Below, in pieces: positions 11,657 to 64,000 of a DNA stretch of 64,000 nucleotides. The notes under the pieces are model-generated. The model made no database searches and was not told the DNA's origin. It saw only the letters and a program-made list of their open reading frames with translations. Position 1 is the stretch's first letter; each line of letters begins with the position of its first letter. The DNA is taken from positions 397,296,001 to 397,360,000 of the forward strand of contig NC_091469.1 in the NCBI RefSeq assembly GCF_036971445.1, read 5' to 3'. The stretch is from Narcine bancroftii. Taxonomy: Eukaryota. A program made the translations under genes and the position numbers.

Positions 11657-13445
11657 CTCAGCCCTCTGTAAGGTTTGGGACAGACATTTTTTTTCCACTT
11701 TATTTGCCTCTGTTCTCCAGTTTTAAATTTGTAATCACACAATTCACATGTAATTAAAGTGAACAGATTTTATTGAAGGGTATTTGGATACATTTTGGTT
11801 AGAACATATAGAAATTATAGTACTTTTTATACATAGCCCCCTCATTTCAGGGCACCATAATATTTGGGACATAACAATGTTATGTTTATTAAAGTAGTCA
11901 TTAAAGAACTTTGCTGCATATCCCTTGCAGGACTCATAGACATCACCAAGCGCTGAGCATCTTCTCTGGCGACGCTCCCCACAGCCACCTTCAGCTCCTG
12001 TTTGTTTTGGGGGGATTGTCCCCTTATGGTTTCTCTTCAGCATGTGGAAGGCATGCTCAAATTGATTTAGATTGAGTGACAGATTGAACATTCAAGAATT
12101 TTTTTTTCAGTTTTAGGACTGTAAAAATATTTTTGTTGCTTTACCAGTATATTTGGAATGTTACCTGAATACTCACAAACGTCTGTGAAGCTAAATTTCC
12201 CCAACATTATGGTGCGCCGAACTGCGGGAACTATGTACAAAAAGTGTTGTAGGATGAAGCAATGTCTAATGAGTTTGGAGGCATTTGCTCCATCTGGAGC
12301 AGATAAGATGTTTCAGCAAATCTCCGAATTAATTTTGCTACAGTCAACAGCAGTTTTCATGATGATAAATGCGCCGGTAGCTGTGGCAGCCAATACATGC
12401 CCAGGTTATAATACTCCCACCACCCTGTTTAATAGATGAGCTGGTATGCTCTGGATCTTGGGCAGTTCCATTACGCCTCCAGACATTGCTCTTTCTATCA
12501 CTCCGACACAGCTTAATCTTGGTTTCATCTGTCCACAAAGCCTTTCTCCAGAATTCTGCACGATCTTTTAAACACTTCTTGGCAAACTGTAATCTGGCCA
12601 TCCTGTTTCTGTGGCCAACTAGTGGTTTGCATTTTGCCATTCAGCCTCTCTATTTCTGTTCATGTAGTCTTAAGTGGACAGTAAATATTGGGACATCTAT
12701 TCCTGCCTCCTGAAGGGTGTTTCTGATCTGTCGGACAGACGTTTGGGGATTTTTCTTCATTATATAACCATATAACCATTTACGGAGTGGAAACAGGCCA
12801 TGTTGGCCTTTCGAGTCCGTACCGGTTCACTGATTTTGTGCGTCCCGTTCTTCTTCTTCTTAACCAGGGTCTCAATATCTCTTGAAAACCAATGGTGAGG
12901 ATTCTTCTGTCTTCAGCAGTGGAGGTCTTCCTTGGCCCACCAGTCACTTTGTGATGACTGAGCTCACCAGTACGCTCTTTCTTCTGAACGTGTTCCAAAC
13001 AGTTAATTTTGGGAATCCTATGGTTTGGGCGATATCTCTTTCTTTTTATTCTTGTTTTTCAGCCTCATAATGGCTTCTTTGACTTTCAATGGCACAACTT
13101 TGGACCTCACGTTGAAAAATGGCAACTACAGACTCCAAAGGTGATCAAAAGCTTAGAAGCAAGCCTAGCTCTATTATGCCTGCAATTAAACATATCTGAG
13201 TACTCAGAAACATCTGTGAATCCAAATATCCCAAATATCCTGAAGTGGGGGAACTATGTATAAAAAGTGCTGTAATTTCTACATGGTCAAACCAAAATGT
13301 GTCTAAATACCCTTTAATAAAATCTGGAATATGCACCTTAAACACGTGAATTGTTTGATTACAAATTTACAAATTCAGAACTGTGGAGCACAGGGGCAAA
13401 TAAAGGAAAAAGGTGTCTTTGTCCCAGATATTATGGAGGGCACTC
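11657..13445 (-). mobile_element. Tc1-family DNA transposon (long IR/DR-type TIRs), defective
   Basis: ~200-bp inverted ends flanked by TA; transposase pieces 12780-12998 (TGGPRKTS) and 12344-12640 (KPL...RLQFAK...LWTDETK...GGGSIITWAC). Confidence 0.9.
12762..12891 (-). mobile_element. Short CR1-tailed insertion inside the Tc1 transposase
   Basis: Reverse complement shares the ~75-nt 3' tail (AGTGAACC...GAAAGGCCAACATGGC...CCGTAAATGGTTATATGGTTA) with 7086-7158. Confidence 0.8.
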
Positions 13446-14391
13446 TATATCACAAAGCATTCCAGTTGTCAAAGTACAATTGTCATTGAGTTACATAAGG
13501 AGTTGCTAGAATAGATGAAAAAAAAATGCTCAATCAAAGATGAAGATTTTTCTACAAGTTTTAAAGTTGAGTAAGAGGTAGAGAAACAGAAAGGTTTGGG
13601 GAGTGTACTCCAGAGGTTAAAACTTAGAGGTGAAAGCAGCAGCCATCAGTGACAGAGTGATGTCCAAGAACACCTAGATTTTAAAACAAAGTGGATTTGT
13701 GCTAAGTAACTTATGAGATGAAGAGAGTAAACATTTTAAAATCATTTTAATGTTATTTCCCCTAAAAAACAATGGGTCAGTTTTTGAAATAAATGTACCT
13801 CTTACCTCCTGTTTATGTACTTCCATGAATTTGCAAGAGTTATGTGTTCAGGTTGTGAACAGAGAGATCAAACAAAGGCAGGGCGACTAAGAAAGGTTGG
13901 CAATCACATTTTATAACAGGAAGCTCTAAGGACGAGTGATTGCCAACCTCAGAAGGAGAATACAAGAGGGCTGTTATTTTTGGCTCTAAATCCTGTAACA
14001 ATTTTAGAAGAAACATACACTTAAAGATTCCAAGTCAATCATTTTGGAGTGAAAGTGGGAAATCATAATACTGTGCTAATTTGTTTAACTCATTCGTAAA
14101 AAAATCATGACCATTTAATAGTACACTGGAAAATAAAACTTCAGTTCCCAAAGTTATATCAGCTTTAGAAAATATCACATGGACGATGAAACCATATCGA
14201 GCACCAATTATAAGAAAATACTATTTTTTATATTCATGACTTATGCTAATAAATGAAAAAAACCATTGGGCAGAGGCTATCCACTCATTGTAAAGGGCAT
14301 TGAATGGCTCTGATAGTGAGACTGATGTTGCTGAGAAGGTGATTGACTTAGTCTTCCCCCCTCCCCCACCCCCAGGCTTTAATGTTACTTT

Positions 14392-14770
14392 AAATTAATT
14401 CGGAGATGTGCTGAAACATCTTATCTGCTCCAGATGGAGCAAATGCCTCCAAACTCATTAGACATTGCTTCATCCCACAACACTTTTTATACATAGTTCC
14501 CGCAGTTCGGCGCACCATAATGTTGGGGAAATTTAGCTTCACAGATGTTTGTGAGTACTCAGGTAACATTCCAAACATACTGGTAAAGCAATAAAAATAT
14601 TTTTACAATCCTAAAACTGAAAAAAAAATTCTTGAATGTTCAATCTGTCACTCAATCTAAATCAATTGAGCATGCCTTCCACATGCTGAAGAGAAACCAT
14701 AAGGGGACAATCCCCCAAAACAAACAGGAGCTGAAGGTGGCTGCGGTAGAGGCCTGACAGAGTCCTGGAA
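14392..14770 (+). mobile_element. Inverted near-identical copy of Tc1 internal segment 11975-12335
   Basis: ORFs 12158-12439(+) and 14390-14578(-) are almost identical over their shared length. Confidence 0.9.
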
Positions 14771-32520: not shown

Positions 32521-32685
32521 ATATTCTGTATTGGAGGAACAACTCTGTAAGAGGGATGCATCACCCATAGTTCAATATTCTGTATTGGAGGAACAACTCT
32601 GTAAGAGGGATGCATCACCCGTAGTTCAATATTCTGTATTGGAGGAACAACTCTGTAAGAGGGATGCATCACCCGTAGTTCAATA
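32521..32685. repeat. Tandem triplication of a 54-bp unit
   Basis: ATATTCTGTATTGGAGGAACAACTCTGTAAGAGGGATGCATCACCC(A/G)TAGTTCA starting at 32521, 32575 and 32629. Confidence 0.97.
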
Positions 32686-35618: not shown

Positions 35619-36559
35619 ACCAGACCTGACCTGACTGCAGCACCTCAAGAAGTTCGTTCTCAGTTTGACAAACTTGCTTCCAAGAACATAGCTGGCTGAT
35701 GTGACTGATTCTGCTTCTCGAAACAATGATGCTCTTCATTTGGCAAAACAAGAAAATAATGAGCATCGCAGGCAAATCCAGACACTGACCTGTGAAATAG
35801 ATGCAATGAAGGGAACGAATGAATCCCTTGAGCGCCAGATGCAAGATATGGAAGACCGGTATAATATGGAAGCTAATAATGCCCAGGAATCCATTTCCCA
35901 ACTCGAAGATGAAATCAGTTGTTTGAAGAATGAGATGACTCGCCATTTGCAAGAATATCAGGAGCTATTGACAGTTAAAATGGCTTTAGATGTTGAGATT
36001 CCAACTTACAGGAAATTACTGGAAGGTGAAGAAAACAGGATTTCTATGCCATTGACCTCATTTGGATTTCTGAACCTCTCTGATGCCATGTTTGAGCAGC
36101 AGCCATTTGAAAATCGAACATCAAAGAAGAAAATTGTCATTAAAACTGTTGAGACCAGCGGGGGAGATGTCATCAGTGAAACTACCCAGAAAATTGAAGA
36201 CTAAACCTGGTGATCTGCCTAAAAATATGCATTGAAGCTGAAGTTCTTCCAAAATAAAGTGCTAGACAAAATTGTTGCTCCTCCTTTTAATCAAGAAGAA
36301 TACTGGCTTTGAAGTGCCTTTCTGCGTCTAATTGAAGAGTGCCAGATTCAATAAAGTTTAGTTGTAAGCTTTATAGAAAAGTAAAAATATAGTAAATGGC
36401 TTCACTGAAGTTATACTACACTCTGTTTATGAAGACAGTCACTAGTTTACAATTGCACAGTGACAACTAGCAATACTTCACCAGTTCTGAATCTTTATTT
36501 ACATTCAGAATCACAATTGTCTGTAAACAAGCTCTAATAAAAAGTTGACCAAAAAAAAA
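35619..36559 (+). pseudogene. VIM: Processed (intronless), 5'-truncated vimentin pseudogene
   Basis: [23 protein letters not shown], then ORF 35701-36204 with coil 2, [10 protein letters not shown] and the tail [26 protein letters not shown]; no introns at the conserved type III intermediate filament junctions; 3'UTR, AATAAA at 36536-36541, A9 at 36551-36559; frameshifting deletion near 35692. Confidence 0.92.
36301..36350 (+). promoter_or_regulatory. Vimentin 3'UTR conserved element (retrocopied)
   Basis: GGCTTTGAAGTGCCTTTCTGC matches the recalled mammalian VIM 3'UTR core AGCTTTCAAGTGCCTTTCTGC. Confidence 0.7.
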
Positions 36560-47344: not shown

Positions 47345-48081
47345 GAAAATTCTGTCAAGTGACTTAATGATAGATGCTGACGAGACATCAGGACAGCGTA
47401 TCGCAAAGGGAAATCTGGAATATTCATCAATTACAGTAAGGAAATATACATTTTTGTTGTTGCACAATGACTGTCCTGACATCACATTAATTTGCCAGTG
47501 AGTCGAGGGCCAGTGCATAGGCAGCATCACTTTCCCTGGGTTTCTGGCGTCTAGTCAGCAACTGGTGTCGAGCAAGCACCACATTCCATGGCACTGCATA
47601 GTAAGCAGTCAGACGTTCCCGGGCTATAGCCAGAGTGGTAGCTCCTTGTGTTACGGTGAAAGGGACCTCACCCAGCAGAGAGTTCAGGTGGCCCCACTGT
47701 ATCGCCTCATCAACCACTTTGTTTCGAGCCATGTAGTAATCGAAACAAGCAATCCAGTGGTTGAAAATTTCTCTGGCTCTCAGGGCAGACTGGTCGATTA
47801 TCAGCCGCTTTTGCTTGAGTGCTGCATCCATTTCTGCTAATATAATTGAAGTGCCAGTTGATGAAGTAGACCAAGACGATGTGGTCAAACAATAATCATG
47901 GCTTTTATTAACAGAAACTCATGGTACAATAATGAAAGACAATAGGTGCATACACAGTTATATCCAAGGGGAGTGTCCTTAACAGTAGAGATAATGCACA
48001 GCCAATGTTAGTAGAGCAAGGCTCGCCAGAGGTGGGGTGGTGATGGGGGGGAGACAGACATCTTGGCAGACATTCACCACA
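47345..48081 (-). mobile_element. Internally deleted Gypsy: 5' LTR 48081-47847, gag from ATG 47831, integrase fragment
   Basis: LTR TGTGGTGAATG...GGCACTTCA; gag MDAALK...REIFNHWIACF...LARHQLLTRRQKP; integrase YFLTVIDEYSRFPFAI. Confidence 0.9.
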
Positions 48082-48179
48082 GTCTCAATCCTATTTTGCT
48101 TTTGAACTGCATTGTTTAACATCATTCAAAAGTTCTTTTTGAAAAAAGATACTATCAAGCCCAATGTTCTTTTTTCAGT

Positions 48180-48183
<4 letters not shown>

Positions 48184-48230
<47 letters not shown>
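48184..48230. repeat. (TG)n microsatellite
   Basis: Seen directly. Confidence 0.97.
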
Positions 48231-49010: not shown

Positions 49011-49865
49011 ATTTTTATGGCTTCTCCATAATCTTTGATTCTTCTGATCTATCGATACTAATGTAATTTCCAACAGAAAAGATATAATCTACCCAGGTTT
49101 TTCTTGCCTTGCTTGTGATAACCAAGTTGGTCTTGCAGAAGTGATTGGTTTGCCTTCTTTTTAACGCTATTGGACACATTGGGCAGTGCCTTAAGAGAGA
49201 AAGCAGGTGGAAGTTCATTTGGGGAGATATCTATTGTGTACTGACAAATAGGAAAATACTGGTGCATATCTGAAGTAATTTTTTTGATTTTTTTTAAATT
49301 TTAGAAATACTTTTGCATTACCCTCTTACTTCTTTCTGGTGATGTGTGGAGAGGAAGCCAAGGAATATGTTCAAATGCTCAACTCTCATCAGGAATCCTG
49401 ACCTTGTGCTCTGAGCCTTCATCACTGCAGTGTTCAGTACGTAACTTCCTTGGACTTCAGCAGCAAAGATTCATGAGGGACATTTTCTGGGATATAGCAA
49501 ATGTGGATTTTGGCAGATAGTGTATGTGATAACTTCTACTTTGAAAAAGGACCACTCAACAACTTCCAATTCTAAAGAACAGCTTTATCTGGGACAGCAA
49601 AACTATATATCTATATCTCTCTATATATCTCTTGATATCTATATATAGATATAGATACACCTCACTTACTGCAGAATAAGCCTCACTTTCAAATCAGCTC
49701 ATATTACAACACTTCTTGCTCTGTAAAATCCAGCATCCCCCAAATATAAAAGAACAATGGTATCAATAGCTTGCGTATTAAAACTTATAATAAACGTGTC
49801 AACAACAATTTAACAATACAAAAACATCCGATAAACATGGCAGATTCGATATTCAATCTACTAAA

Positions 49866-50083
49866 TGTGGTGAATGTCTGCCACGCTGCCTGCCTCCCCT
49901 CTGGCGAGCCTTGCTGTACTAACATTGGCTGTGCATTATCTCTACTGTTAAGGACACACCCTTTGGGTATAATTGTGTACGCACTTATTGTCTTTCATTA
50001 TTGTACCATGAGTTTCTGCTAATAAAAGCCATGATTATTGTTTGACCACATCGTCTTGGTCTACTTCATCAACTGGCACTTCA
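49866..50083 (+). mobile_element. Solo LTR (same family as 47847-48081)
   Basis: TG...CA termini; 5-bp TSD CTAAA at 49861-49865 and 50084-50088; TATAA and AATAAA inside. Confidence 0.92.
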
Positions 50084-50531
50084 CTAAAAAACTGTACAAT
50101 CAAAGATTCAGTCTGTCAGGAAGTTTGCGAGCGTATTGTGATCTGCGCACTACCCCCGATGACTCAGCAGCCACTGCTGTCAAAGGTGTTTTGTGAAGAT
50201 CTGGTGTTGGGGGCATTAGAGGGGTCTGTGAGTCAGTGTCGGAAGGTCCATCCTCTTCAGGGGGCCCAGACACCTCTGACAGCGACTTTTTCTCTGGGAA
50301 ACTCACTGGGGAACACATTTCCACAAGTCTGTTGGACCATAGGAAAATCCATGGATCAGTCCGCCTCTGAGAATGTAACATGATTTAAGTGCACATGGTC
50401 CTGATGTCTGCAGAAAACATGTCTGTCAGTCAGCTTTACAATGTTGGAGACAGGCCACTATGCTTAAGAATAACCCCAGGTAGCCATTGCTGATTGTCAT
50501 CTGGTTTTAACTGTCTTTCTCCTGCATGTTG

Positions 50532-53500
50532 TTTTTTCAAACTTTATTTAAAAGATAGTGAAAAAAAAACCCATTAAAACAGTATAGAAATAATCAAGAA
50601 AAGATTTTACAATAATACCCCTCCCACCCCTATAGCCAACTTAAGTGGAGCAACAACATAAAAATAGATTATATATATAAAAATTTAAAAATTATGAATA
50701 TTAATAACATTTCAAAGTATATCTAAATGCATATATTTCAAATACAGACACCACTTACTAACAAAAGAAGAATTATCCTGTAAATTATAAGTAATTTTTT
50801 TCCATGACAATACATACATTGTCATGTTGTGCCAACATGATATATTAATCTCAGTATCATCTTTCCAAGTACTAGCAACACATTTACGCGCTACTGATAT
50901 CACCAAATATACAAAAGCAATTTGAATTTTGTCCATTCCCATTCCCCTGAACGAATACAAATTTCCGAATCAAAAATATCGTTGGATCTAACAGTAATAT
51001 AAAATTATATAATTTTCCCAAAACTACTTTGATTCCTTGCCAAAATTATTGAACTTTAATGCAAGTCCAAACGGCATGTATAAAAGTTCCAATACATGAA
51101 TCACATCTAAAACAAGAATCCGAATTACTAAATTCATTTTTTAAGCTTTTCTGGGGTCAAATATAATTGATGTAAAAAATTATAATTAGTCAATTTAATT
51201 ACATTGTCCTGACACATATTCGCCCAATTATCTTTGGGAATAATAAATAATAAATCACTCTCCCATTTAAGTTTAGATTTCTCCCAATCTGACTTATCCA
51301 TACTATCTTGTAACAAATTATACATCACTGAAACATAACCCTTTTTCGGTATAGAGGAAATCAAAGATTCAAATCTCGACAAAGTAGGTAAAATCATCTC
51401 TCTACCATAATTATCTTTTATCAAAGCTCTAAGTTGATAATACACAAACAAAAAATTTATAAGTATATCAAATCTTTCTCTCAATTGATTAATAAAAGAA
51501 ATTCCCCTCTACAAAACAATCTTGTATTGTCTTTATACCTTTAGAATCCCAAATCTTTAAATGATTATTAAACATTGAAAAAGGAATAAGCTGATTATTA
51601 TATAATGGAGTTAAAATAGATAATTTATCTTTTGACCCTAACACCCTATTTTTTTTATCCAAATCTTTAGCAAATGTTTCAATATCGGCATATCATATTG
51701 CTGTAACAAAATCAAATTTCAACAAAATATAAATTCATGTATCTCAACCCTGGAAATATACACCATCTCCACTTTAGCCCAGCTAGGAGGCTGATCTAAA
51801 TCCACCAATCTACTAACAAACTTTAACCGGGCCACTTCATAATAGTTTTGAAAATGTGGCAATGGTAATCCGCCCAATGCACACTTCCATGTAAGTCTAT
51901 GCAACGCCACTCGAGCTAATTTACCTTTCCATAAAAACTCTCGCAATGCCTTATTCAAATCTTGAAAAAAGCCCTTAGAAAGTAAACAAGGTATTGACTG
52001 AAATGAATATTGAATTCGAGGAAAAATATTCATTTTAATACAATTAACCTGACCAATCAAAGTTAATGAAAGATCTTTCCACTTAATCAAATCTGCTTTA
52101 ATCTATCTTAATATAGGTACATAATTTAATTGATATAATGATTGATAATTAATATCCATAAACACACCTAAATATTTAATTTTACTTGCCCACCTTCTTT
52201 TATCCCAATTAACTTTATATCCCGATAATTCTCCAAATTTCAACAAACACTCTTGCAATTGTTTCAACGACCATTCCGGTTCCGTCAAATATACCAACAC
52301 ATTGTCCGCAAATAAATTAATTTTATATTCTTCATTCTTAACCCTCATCCCTCTAATTTCTTAATTTTGTATAATAGCCTGAGCTAACAGTTCAATAACC
52401 AATGCAAATAAGGCTGGTGACAATGGGCAGCCCTGTCGAGTTGAACAAGTTAATTTAAATGGTGAAGAAATCTGTCCATTTGTCATCACCCTAGCAATTG
52501 GGTTTGTATATAAAGCCTTAACCCAACCAATAAAAAAAGGGCCGAATTTAAATTTCTCTAACACTCTAAATAAAAAATCCCACTCAACCCTATCAAAAGC
52601 TTTTTCTGCATCTAATGCAACCTGAAGGTAATTAATCGAAATATATTGTCTGATGCATTTCTATTCTTAATAAAACCTGTTTGATCAATGTGTACCAATT
52701 TGGGTAAATATCTAGCAAGTCTATTAGCTAATACTTTCGGAATAATTTTATAATCTAGATTTAATAAAGAAATAGGTCTATATGAAGTTACTTTTAATGG
52801 AACTATCTTTTTTTGGAATGACAGTTATTAAAGCATTTTAACATGATTCTAGTAACTTCTGATCTTCAGTAACTTGATTCAACACTTCTCCAAATTCATT
52901 AGAAAAATCATCATAAAAGAGTTCATAAAATTCCACAGGGAATCCATCATCCCCTGGGGACTTTCCATTAGGCATTTCCTGAATAGATTCTTTAATTTCA
53001 AAATATATAAATGGAGATTCCAATTCCTGAACATCATTTCCATCTAATACTGGTAATTTTAATTTAGATAAGTAAGAATCAATTATCCTGTTTCCCCTCA
53101 GAAGTATATAATTTTTGATAAAATGAATAAAACTGGTCATTAATTTCCTGAGGTTTGTAAGTAACTTTTTAATTCTTCTTAACAGCATTAATAGTTTGAG
53201 ATGTCTGTTCAGTTTTCAATTGCCAAGCAAGTACCTTATGAGCTCTTTCCCGAACTCATAATAACGTAGTTTAGATCAATTAATTAAGTGCTCAAACTGA
53301 TAAGTTTGTAAATTATTATAATGTAATTTCAACCTCGCTAATGCAACTTTTTTTAAATCTTCTGTTACACCTTTCTGAAAATCTTTCTCTAACTCAGCAA
53401 TCTTATTTTTGAACTGTAACCTTTCTGCCATATATTGTTTCTTAACTTTTGTAGAATAATTAATAATCTTCCCCCTCAAATAAACTTTTAAAGCATCCCA

Positions 53501-60329: not shown

Positions 60330-62960
60330 GGTCTACATTTCCCCATATCTGAAATTCCATTAACCAAACATTTCTATTAACCCATTTTTTTTTTTCAGTG
60401 CCAACATCACAAGTTGAAAAAATGTATCACCCAATTTTCCCATGTGTGACTCTGGTACTCTGTTGGCACCATTTTGAATCTAATAGTGCTCTCGTGTATT
60501 GAGATACAGTTGCAATGGCAAAAAGGTTTGCGAATAGCACTGTCGATATCAGTGAAAAGAAAAGGAGGATGCGTTTATATTTGTCTATAAAACAGAAAGT
60601 CAAGCTGCTAGTGAAATTGGACAGTGGTGAAAATGTGACATGTCTTACAGAAGAGTATGGTATTGGAACGACTGCAATTTGTGACCTGAAGAAACAGAAG
60701 AATAAATTGTTGAAGTTTTTCCTAAGAGTGATGAAAAGAAATTAATGAAAGATAGAAAAACACTGCTGTAAAGGTAAAAATGAAGAACTCTATTGTGTAT
60801 TGATGGAGTGGATCCAATAGTATCACAGTGAACACATGCCACTTAATGGCTTGCTGATCATGAAACAAGCAAAACTCCATCATAATGATCTGAAATTTGA
60901 ATGGAAAGGTAAATATTCAGCAGGCTGGTTGAGTAAATTTAAGAAAAGGCACGGCATTAAATTGTTAAAGATTAGTGGCAAAAAAGCATCTGCTGATCGT
61001 GGAGCAGTGGAGAAATTCATTGACGAGTTTGCGAAGATCATCGCTGATGAAAATCTGACATCAGAACAAGTCTATAATGCTGATGAAACATCACTGCTTT
61101 GTCGTTATTGCCCCAGAAGAAGACTGGCTACAGCTGATGAGAAAGCCCATACAGGAATTAAGAATGCCAAGTACAGAATAACTGTGCTGGGATGTACTAA
61201 TGCAGCAGGCAAGCATAAGTGTAAACTTGCTGTGATAGGCAAAGCTTGTGTCCTCATTGTTTTAAAGGAGGGAATTTCTTACCAGTCCATTATTATGCAA
61301 ACAGACAGGCATGGGTCACCAGGGACATCTTTTCTGATTGGTTTAACAAACATTTTGTGCCAGTGGGTCGTGCTCACTGCAGGGGAGCTAGATTGGATAC
61401 TAACTGCAAGGTGTTTTTTTTTTCAATTTATGATGCTGCCAATGCTTGGAACAAAGTGACTCAAGACACAATCTCTGACCTGCAACTATGTTCCTTAATG
61501 GTGATGATTTGGAAGGATTTCCATGGGCAAGTGAGGAAAAAAAAATCTTGTGTGACCTCCTTACATACAATATGCAAAAAATAAACATTCAGAGTCCATC
61601 AGTCAGCTGGAAGAAGAAGATATTGAAGAAGTTTTATAACATCGATAATGAGGCTCCAGTTGTTCATTCTATTACATGTTTGTAGTTCACTTTAAATCGA
61701 ATGAGACTGTTACCTTAAGAGAACAAATCAAGCTGCAAGTTTGGGAGTTTGACTGTGAGCTGGCAGGCTGAGGACAGCATGTACTAAATTGGACACATCT
61801 GAAGAGAGAGGAAGTGCAGATGCAGAGATTATGTGACCAATAGATTAAAGATAGTACTGAGTTTGCTCTGGGGCCATTTTAAGGAACCACTACTTGAGGA
61901 AGCATCTTTTGAAGGGATGCTGTGCTGAAGTGGTCTTGTGTAATAATAGACAATCTGTCTGATTTCCCCATGTTATCGGGGAATGAGTGTGGCCATTTTA
62001 AGGAGTCAATACTTGGAGAAGCATCCTTTGAATGGTTACTGTGCTGAATGCAGCCTCGTGTGATAATAGACATTTGTCTGATTTCTCAGTGTTATAGGGG
62101 AATTCTGGGACCAAAAGGTAGAGGTCATTTTGATCGGCTGACCCATGGAAAGGGTTCTACAAGCAGAGAAATACTGCGCTTGGGTTGCGACCATTGTGAG
62201 GGTCACATGGAACGGCTGACCCACAAAAGGGTTTCTGGAAGCTTTGTGAAGATCACTTGCTTGATATCTCCTATGCTAAAGAAGAGGGGAGTTTTGGTCG
62301 CCACTCATCTGAAAAGGACATTGGTCTGGAAGCACCTCGACAAGGATTTCATAAGTTAATAAACATTCTGTCACTTGGTCACTCCCACTTACTTTGTGAT
62401 CATTTCTGCACCCATCTAAAGCCTGTGTGTCATATCCATCTAAAGCCTGCATATCACATTGATTCAAGACCCACGTGTCAACATTGGATGTTCTGAGACT
62501 GAACTGCCTCTCCAGAATTAGGCCTGAGTTGTAGTGGCATAGGCAAATAAGTAATTTACATATAGTTGGGAGTTAAGTATAGATAAGTTTAAATAAGTGT
62601 AGGTAAATTAGATGAGGTGTTATATTATTGTTAATTGTTGAAATATTACTTTAAACATAACACTGTCTGGCCTCATTTATATTGCTGCTGACTGGTACAT
62701 AGCAATTCACTGACCGACGGTGAAATAGCTGAAATTGTTCTGCATCAAGGTGAGCACATGTTGACACTGCATAAAAATTGCCCATAGACGACATGGTGAA
62801 AATGTTGATGGGCTTATTGATGCACAAGAGCAGTGAGCATTCAGAACTGAACAAGAAATCATGTCAGTGCATAAAATCAAAAAGAGAGAACTGCTGACAA
62901 AAGCCATTGTTAATCAGGCAGACGACACTGGAGGAAATATTTGAAAAAGCTGTCGAGGTG
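60330..62960 (+). mobile_element. Tigger/pogo (Zombi/jerky-like) DNA transposon, defective, split by an LTR
   Basis: CENP-B-type HTH (ORF 60515-60745); GWLSKFKKRHGI...VYNADETSL...RITVLGCTNAAG (ORF 60836-61459); coding sequence resumes at 62705. Confidence 0.88.
61670..62704 (+). mobile_element. Solo LTR-like insertion (~1 kb)
   Basis: Interrupts the transposase; 4-bp TSD ATTC at 61666-61669 and 62705-62708; termini TATTACA...TAGCA (decayed TG...CA). Confidence 0.7.
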
Positions 62961-63079: not shown

Positions 63080-64000
63080 TGATACAAGTATTTGTTGATA
63101 TTAGATATTAGAACTGTCTGTATTTATGTACTGTATGGATTAGCCCGCCCCCTACACCTGTGACTCCTCCCCTCAGAATCCCCATGAAAGCTGTTACGCA
63201 CAAACTCCTCCCTCTGTACCTGACTTGGAACCGGGCCAGCAACATGTGAGATGTGTTGATGTCTTATGGTGATTAAAGCCTATTAATCACAACTCTCAGT
63301 CTAATGTGGTTGATCAATTTAATCACCATAATTTTTGTGCCATAGTCAAGGCAATAGGGAGGGAATAAACTAGACACTGACCCTAAAGATCTGGAGGCTT
63401 CCTTCAAAGTTGATCAATGACAACCCCTTCATGAGACACAACGTGTAGAGTGAGGAATATAAACAAGACCACTCAGGTCAGCCATCATGTGTTATCAGAT
63501 GATCGAGCACTGCAATACTTACTCAGCCACAATGGAACTCCTGTAAAGAGCATATAGGACTCTGACGAATGTCATCTATGCTAGGGACCTTCTGGGCAGT
63601 TGTAGACAACTGCCTGCTGAGTTCGTGGATGAATACATGTGGGTCCTGTGGGAGCTGGAGTGAACCTGCAACTGCAGAGATGTCTCTGCTGCTGTCCACT
63701 TAGAGGAACTGATACATGATGCATGTGTGGCTGGATACAAGTCTGATCACATCAGACGGACACTCCTAAAAAAGGGTGATCGGAGCCTGCAGAAAGTTGT
63801 TGACCTGGCAAAAACGCTTGAGACAGCACAGCTGCATCTGGAAGTTTTCTCCTCAGGAAACATGGCCGCCATGTGGGAGCCCTGTTGGAATGTGTGGCCC
63901 CAGGTCATGCCACCACCATCAAGTACCCAAAGGGCTACTTCCGCAGCCATGCTAAAAGGTGCCCATCCTGAAATGCCACATGTTCCACCTGCGGAAAGAA
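63080..64000 (+). mobile_element. Gypsy 5' LTR (ends 63316) plus decayed gag, running off the window
   Basis: NVIYARDLL, TCNCRDVSAAVH.EELIHDA.VAG.KSDHIRRTLL; same gag type as 33288 and 47831; LTR start uncertain. Confidence 0.8.

Follow-up and report, generated by a model that had tools for sequence, protein, structure and literature searches.

Organization of the locus and of its retrotransposon family

The analysed window, a 64,000-nt stretch of the Narcine bancroftii genome (contig NC_091469.1, positions 397,296,001 to 397,360,000 of the forward strand), was found to carry on its minus strand the 5' LTR of a decayed Ty3/Gypsy retrotransposon, here assigned to family B, together with remnants of its internal region (Table 1). 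The LTR of this family measures 218 bp in most copies, the window copy being enlarged by a C-rich insertion. A further family B LTR lies on the plus strand and is flanked by its own 5-bp target duplication, which identifies it as a genuine solo LTR. It sits antisense at the end of another Gypsy pol gene: the sequence at 50084-50540 (minus strand), together with about 49700-49860, belongs to another Gypsy family, of which it represents the pol 3' end and 3' untranslated part, and the solo LTR was inserted a few bases past the stop codon of that family. The pol segment has no match to family B copies. An inverted-LTR (DIRS-like) architecture, prompted by the opposite orientation of the solo LTR beside this pol end, was ruled out, as sibling copies have LTRs in direct orientation and a separate target duplication flanks the solo LTR.

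Among 39 family B siblings, 29 have a second direct LTR downstream within 10 kb. Complete copies are ~4.2 kb long, with direct TG..CA LTRs, a polypurine tract, 5-bp duplications and host DNA following the 3' LTR. Pfam analysis of four natural frames from sibling copies gave the order gag-protease-RT-RNase H-integrase, with gag and RT sharing one frame; the closest solved relative is the Ty3 RT.

The surroundings within the window are rich in LINEs. An intronless frame at 35692-36204 (plus strand) was recognised by eye as the end of the rod plus the tail of an intermediate filament protein of type III and is probably a processed pseudogene, while the frame at 60821-61459 (plus strand) resembles, by eye, a Tigger/pogo transposase. 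A tandem array of three near-identical 54-bp units is found at 32521-32685. Long nested inverted arms span 11764-14720 (12006-12335 and 14392-14720 being about 97% alike) and may represent a DNA transposon with long terminal inverted repeats.

Table 1. Features of the family B and family C elements in the window.
Feature	Position	Strand	Basis or remark
5' LTR, Ty3/Gypsy family B	47847..48080	-	Sibling direct LTR pairs, polypurine tract, 5-bp target duplications
TATA-like box (putative), 29 nt before predicted start	47957..47962	-	Sequence and motif scan; putative function
Predicted transcription start, A of initiator-like TCATT	47933..47933	-	31 nt before arm end; predicted from motif and read-through stops
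LTR arm, paired 3' part of the proposed self-primer	47903..47917	-	Predicted cut between 47903 and 47902; cut-off LTRs heap here
AATAAA poly(A) signal within arm	47904..47909	-	A-tailed LTR fragments, 8 loci, LTR positions 178-183
Poly(A) site, bounding short R	47882..47887	-	Sibling A-tailed fragments projected onto window copy
Primer-binding slot (predicted), arm complement	47831..47845	-	1 nt behind LTR; ends on the A of the gag ATG
gag remnant	47490..47831	-	Interrupted by a stop and a large internal deletion
Integrase-core remnant	47372..47462	-	Beyond the deletion; ended by a LINE fragment
Solo LTR, family B	49866..50083	+	Target duplication 49861-49865 / 50084-50088; arm 50013-50027
LTR arm, family C	63264..63277	+	Ends in ATTAAA
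Primer-binding slot, family C	63318..63331	+	Complement of own arm

Complementarity between the LTR and the predicted primer-binding slot

The initial annotation had described an LTR ending at 47847 and separated by only 15 nt (47846-47832) from a gag ATG at 47831, with no TGG in between, and this layout is borne out by the sequence. The 12-nt pairing of this leader with 47917-47906 of its own LTR (one G:U) and the 12/12 match in the solo LTR at 50013-50024 were likewise found as claimed. The duplex is longer than first described, however, extending over 15 bp between the arm at 47917-47903 and the slot at 47845-47831, which starts one base behind the terminal CA of the LTR. In the window copy it contains one A:A mismatch, at 47843, in addition to the G:U pair. 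An exact 15-nt complement of the solo-LTR arm (50013-50027) is present in 30 of the 39 family B copies, which were retrieved by similarity to a query that itself contains the slot. A canonical tRNA primer-binding site retained by intact relatives and deleted here was considered and ruled out: no slot starts with TGG in any of the 39 family B copies or in any of the 28 pairing families described below. A search of positions 47700-48200 against Rfam gave nothing at threshold.

The comparison was extended to related families drawn from 89 metagenome or MAG loci. Forty-five of these lacked a gag start by profile, one lay too close to a contig end and three (L122, L135, and L161) had no candidate LTR end; the remaining 40 had both a gag start and a candidate LTR end and, together with families B and C, gave a set of 31 families. 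With candidate LTR ends picked independently of the arm, by a rule that favours T-rich slots and with a paired LTR available to confirm the end in just 10 of the 31 families, a perfect complement of 11-19 nt to the own LTR was found in the slot of 28 families, always at an offset of 1 behind the CA. The three misses are L116, in which the LTR is cut by the contig end, and L173 and L179, with one early mismatch each. Among the controls, a length of 11 nt was reached by 6 of 930 cross-family pairs and by none of 6200 shuffles, which argues that the pairing is not due to chance. The arms are conserved as complements, a point on which the earlier interpretation depended. The same geometry with different letters had been noted for family C as an argument against chance, and it is seen both there (Table 1) and across the 28 families.

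Over these 28 families pairing is complete through position 11, is retained in 26 at positions 12-13 and falls to background by position 17. A G at position 10 is conserved in 25 families and an A at position 11 in 20, and a purine-C-C (R-C-C) directly follows the arm in about 26. A stem of at least 4 bp directly behind the arm, a possible counterpart of the helper stem within the loop in Tf1-type priming, is present in 21 of the 28 (p ≤ 0.05 in 10) and absent from families B and C. It had also been suggested that the duplex, by reaching the start codon, could couple priming to translation. No general rule of this kind emerged: the duplex extends to the gag ATG in 6 of the 28 families, with leader lengths of 16-47 nt, and a conserved reach to the ATG was consequently ruled out.

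Compensatory changes were also found among close relatives. At position 11 of family C, 13 of 29 copies have T-A, 13 have A-T and 3 have other combinations (r2 0.73), and this pair ranks second of 3710 column pairs; the covariation tracks mostly the subfamily tree and may reflect a single event. In a sister subfamily of B, 16 of 17 copies combine an arm A at position 10 with a slot T. No sign that the arm templates the slot copy by copy was detected at position 9, where the arm agreed with the sporadic variants in just 1 of 22 copies, as would be expected if most of them arose after insertion. The family C copy in the window lacks, at 63300-63317, ~10 bp of the LTR end that is present in its siblings.

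Polyadenylation, promoter motifs and reversed LTR copies

The position of the poly(A) site is given by A-tailed LTR fragments. A search for A-runs at 0-30 nt past the arm returned four loci, all ending at LTR positions 178-181, and a narrower search added four more with ends at 178-183; a tail directly at the arm end was found in none of the four loci of the 0-30 nt search. Since the fragments terminate 16-21 nt past the arm, its AATAAA functions as the poly(A) signal of family B, leaving a stretch of R of this length beyond the arm for the first strand transfer. The overlap of the pairing with a poly(A) signal, which the initial annotation had emphasized, thus holds for family B and recurs as AATAAA in nine and ATTAAA in another nine of the 28 families; as the remaining 10 have neither hexamer in the arm, it is common and not obligatory. 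Five fragments (L346, L348, L356, L359, and L360) run from within two bases of LTR position 1 to an A-tail at the poly(A) site and lack U5. They are likely by-products of reverse transcription that ran into the tail.

A second type of DNA product was suggested by a public-run contig in which the slot is prolonged by 16 further bases of reversed LTR. The four public-run sets used consist of contigs whose RNA origin is only guessed and which cannot show transcript starts or ends. When the genome was searched with an exact 27-nt pattern, 51 such read-through junctions were obtained against 512 normal ones (about 9%), and the set rose to 91 loci when two mismatches were allowed. In these genomic copies the arm and the LTR sequence upstream of it lie in reverse in the slot; the start of the reversed run at the arm end is fixed by the search, so that the set is no independent test of the register. 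By length, the 91 runs comprise 4 of 16-25 nt, 14 of 26-35 nt, 17 of 36-158 nt, 26 of 159-168 nt (the LTR start) and 30 of more than 168 nt, the last reaching up to 3.7 kb across the polypurine tract into pol. The same approach in family C gave 27 pattern matches, of which 22 were ordinary LTRs in reverse, one was a normal junction and four were read-through copies, all of them long.

The short peak has its mode at 31 nt. This corresponds to the A of the initiator-like TCATT, 29 nt after the TATA-like box, and the peak suggests, from DNA products, a transcription start 16 nt ahead of the paired part in family B. After removal of one duplicate, the 26-35 nt class contains 13 loci and occurs at 4.9 times the rate of the 36-100 nt range (p 9e-5), with an equal supply of microhomology in both ranges. 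This TATA/initiator spacing was not seen in the other 27 families, which may have shorter primers; the conserved G at position 10 and A at position 11, and the decay of pairing after position 13, would fit a shorter primer there.

The full 5' LTR is kept in 13 of the 14 short (26-35 nt) read-throughs, and many read-through copies later return to forward internal sequence and finish in a normal LTR. Target duplications were tested in 22 copies and matched in 4-5 of 5 letters in 15 of the 18 that could be scored, so the rearrangements look to have preceded integration. Shortened upstream LTRs start at positions 161-165 in 8 of 31 cases, the arm ending at 162. This heap may reflect a cut directly behind the arm, and a DNA hairpin opening at the loop could be an alternative source of it. 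Several of the cut-off LTR loci join internal pieces through short shared words, and at least two of the 91 loci (L228 and L282) look like plain inversions of the inter-arm loop. Locus L277 is a mini-element in which one LTR and an inverted U3 are joined by a single base; it has a perfect 5-bp target duplication, which indicates that the inverted LTR start acted as an integrase end.

Predicted self-priming and its relation to known systems

Reverse transcription in this clade is very probably primed by the LTR arm without a tRNA. The proposal of tRNA-free priming by an LTR-derived sequence, made in the initial annotation, is supported by the complement to the own LTR and by the read-throughs, the start and the cut being deduced from DNA products. 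Judging from these sequences, the primer of family B is probably a fragment of ~31 nt cut behind the arm from the 5' end of the element's own RNA, giving a Tf1-like but partly unpaired primer. Transcription would start at 47933, and the arm at the capped 5' end would fold onto the slot over a 57-nt loop. An RNase H-type cut past the arm would then yield a 3' OH, as in Tf1. Minus strong-stop DNA would copy U5 and R back to the cut, and the 16-21 nt of R that separate the cut from the poly(A) site would serve for its transfer. Plus-strand synthesis would subsequently copy the retained primer, the unpaired 16-nt 5' part of which would have no partner in the minus strand; about a tenth of the surviving junctions would therefore have jumped inwards (26-35 nt) or switched to the 3' LTR copy, where the run would go on as far as the LTR start or enter pol. 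An end of this kind on the plus strand, unable to pair with the minus strand yet identical in register to the 3' LTR, would explain both the short stops and the long runs. The 5' AATAAA, lying in the piece that is paired and removed, would thus stay silent in the 5' LTR, with the signal of the 3' LTR left free.

Against a primer from the 5' end stands the observation that 56 of the 91 runs reach the LTR start or go beyond it, which requires the 3' LTR as template, and a 3'-derived primer explains these runs equally well. Such a primer would arise if the arm of the 3' LTR were cut behind its AATAAA and the resulting long RNA primed the slot of the same or a co-packaged RNA, the long read-throughs being direct copies of it. 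This appears unlikely. The 30 runs that cross the polypurine tract into pol and the 26 that stop at the LTR start agree with it, as does the cut-off LTR of L235, which starts at 131, as would be expected had strong-stop DNA extended to a 5' end that was not cut. However, the A-tails lie behind the arm and never at it, so that a cut is required anyway; the 26-35 nt peak and the LTR starts at 161-165 are left unexplained, and a template switch via 31 nt of identity yields the same long products. Primers from the 5' and 3' ends may also coexist.

It is distinctly less probable that the primer is a short capped LTR transcript acting in trans, arising by pausing or early termination at any LTR, even a solo one, and not cut from genomic RNA. 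Promoter-proximal RNAs have a length range that includes 31 nt, which counts in favour of this source, and the 26-35 nt peak fits it equally well; but an exact 3' end would be needed in 28 families, the LTR starts at 161-165 suggest that the template itself was cut there, and the R-C-C behind the arm looks like a recognition site in cis. Slightly less probable again is priming by a host tRNA fragment or another small RNA, in which case the duplex would have no function other than masking the 5' poly(A) signal or regulating translation. Although the working signal in the arm of family B and the canonical hexamer in 18 of 28 families would suit such a role, the other 10 pair without one, slots vary freely between families and yet follow their own LTR, no slot begins with TGG, and the short read-throughs consist of LTR letters and not of tRNA. 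Least probable is that DNA-level template switching of close inverted repeats maintains the complementarity with no role in priming, the read-through copies being chromosomal rearrangements: loop inversions do exist (L228 and L282), but the element would be left without a primer site, the register is fixed over 28 families, target duplications are intact in 15 of 18 copies, and the long runs copy the tract and pol and not host flank, which largely refutes this explanation.

The preferred reading, a self-primer cut from the 5' end, can be compared with known systems. In Tf1 the primer consists of the RNA's first 11 bases, released by an RNase H cut between bases 11 and 12 (PMC7175516), and a single-stranded copy of the primer is retained in about half of the cDNAs (PMC11042837). 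Self-priming has been reported, or predicted, in Tf1/sushi, Tj1, Tcn1 and the TAR group of copia (PMC6317226, PMC4600332, PMC5341516); further papers used for comparison were PMC3601003, PMC6934838, PMC3670739, and PMC13524379. Like Tf1/Tf2 of Schizosaccharomyces pombe, Tj1 of S. japonicus and the Tf1/sushi group, the present clade has the Ty3/Gypsy domain order and no tRNA site (PMC7175516, PMC4600332, PMC11042837, PMC5341516). As in the Tf1/sushi group, the slot adjoins the 5' LTR and complements a stretch upstream in the LTR, and a primer copy is here predicted to be kept in the cDNA; a complement to the own LTR of at least 10 nt directly behind the LTR, which marks Tf1-type elements, was found here. 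Tf1 pairs 11 bases at the start of its RNA. In family B, by contrast, 15 bases pair, a further 16 on the 5' side appear to stay unpaired, and the poly(A) signal lies within the arm. The clade would work like Tf1 but differs in the chromodomain, as neither a chromodomain nor a chromovirus-type integrase tail was found in the precomputed domains of the 76 best relatives or in the four natural frames. For the Tcn1 clade of mosses and fungi and for TAR/Houba/Osr-1 of Ty1/copia, self-priming was predicted from at least 10 bp of complementarity linking the 5' LTR to the bases that immediately follow it; these are other lineages in other hosts, and the accessible part of that study gives no read-through evidence or primer length (PMC6317226). 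In fungal GalEa a conserved hairpin replaces the tRNA site; unlike the pairing in this clade, it lies inside the leader and, according to its authors, has no LTR complement (PMC5445492).

About 75 proteins share 33-43% identity with family B across most of the query and form a group that lies far above the remaining Gypsy hits. Those few that have a name belong to a sea anemone, a woodlouse, and a ray, the nearest being from a cartilaginous fish; no relative was found among viral contigs. Members of this clade of animal retrotransposons also occur on contigs L181-L189, which are binned in bacterial MAGs, and this points to the presence of host DNA in the bins. In an IQ-TREE analysis of RT-RH the clade forms one long branch of its own (100/100), in an unresolved fork near chromodomain rows, with which grouping was not rejected (AU test p 0.07). 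FastTree placed it with Mag-like rows, a sister relationship that was not upheld in IQ-TREE; the row sets of both trees were without Tf1 and sushi themselves. Cigr-1 is an element of about 4.2 kb with short LTRs and one ORF of ~1200 codons. The proteins of the present clade have a similar length, 1070-1290 aa for most relatives, and by size and layout it may be the Cigr-1 clade; one of MolGy1-16 would be a further candidate. The Cigr-1 clade, known from Ciona intestinalis and also from molluscs, is filed under Mag in one supplement of a paper whose accessible part makes no statement on priming (PMC6238403). A literature search, covering few subscription journals or repeat-database reports, found neither self-priming in such a clade nor read-through copies.

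Taken as a whole, we tentatively propose that a Gypsy clade of aquatic animals evolved tRNA-free priming apart from Tf1/sushi, using a capped, partly unpaired 5' primer (at times a cut 3' genome end) that contains the poly(A) signal, and that its overhang throws plus-strand transfer off course in about one insertion in ten. Outside one yeast element in which it was worked out, self-priming is predicted from complementarity alone. It would here be extended to a widespread animal clade without a chromodomain, with copies of the primer recorded in the genome. If this is true, host genomes keep a readable map of the start, cut and poly(A) sites of each family, and the prediction would take the form of exact coordinates: a start 31 nt before the arm end, a cut directly behind it and poly(A) addition 16-21 nt behind. 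Counts of read-through junctions would offer a general test of any predicted self-primer from assemblies only. Self-primed elements would also evade control by tRNA fragments and be overlooked by annotation based on primer-binding sites.
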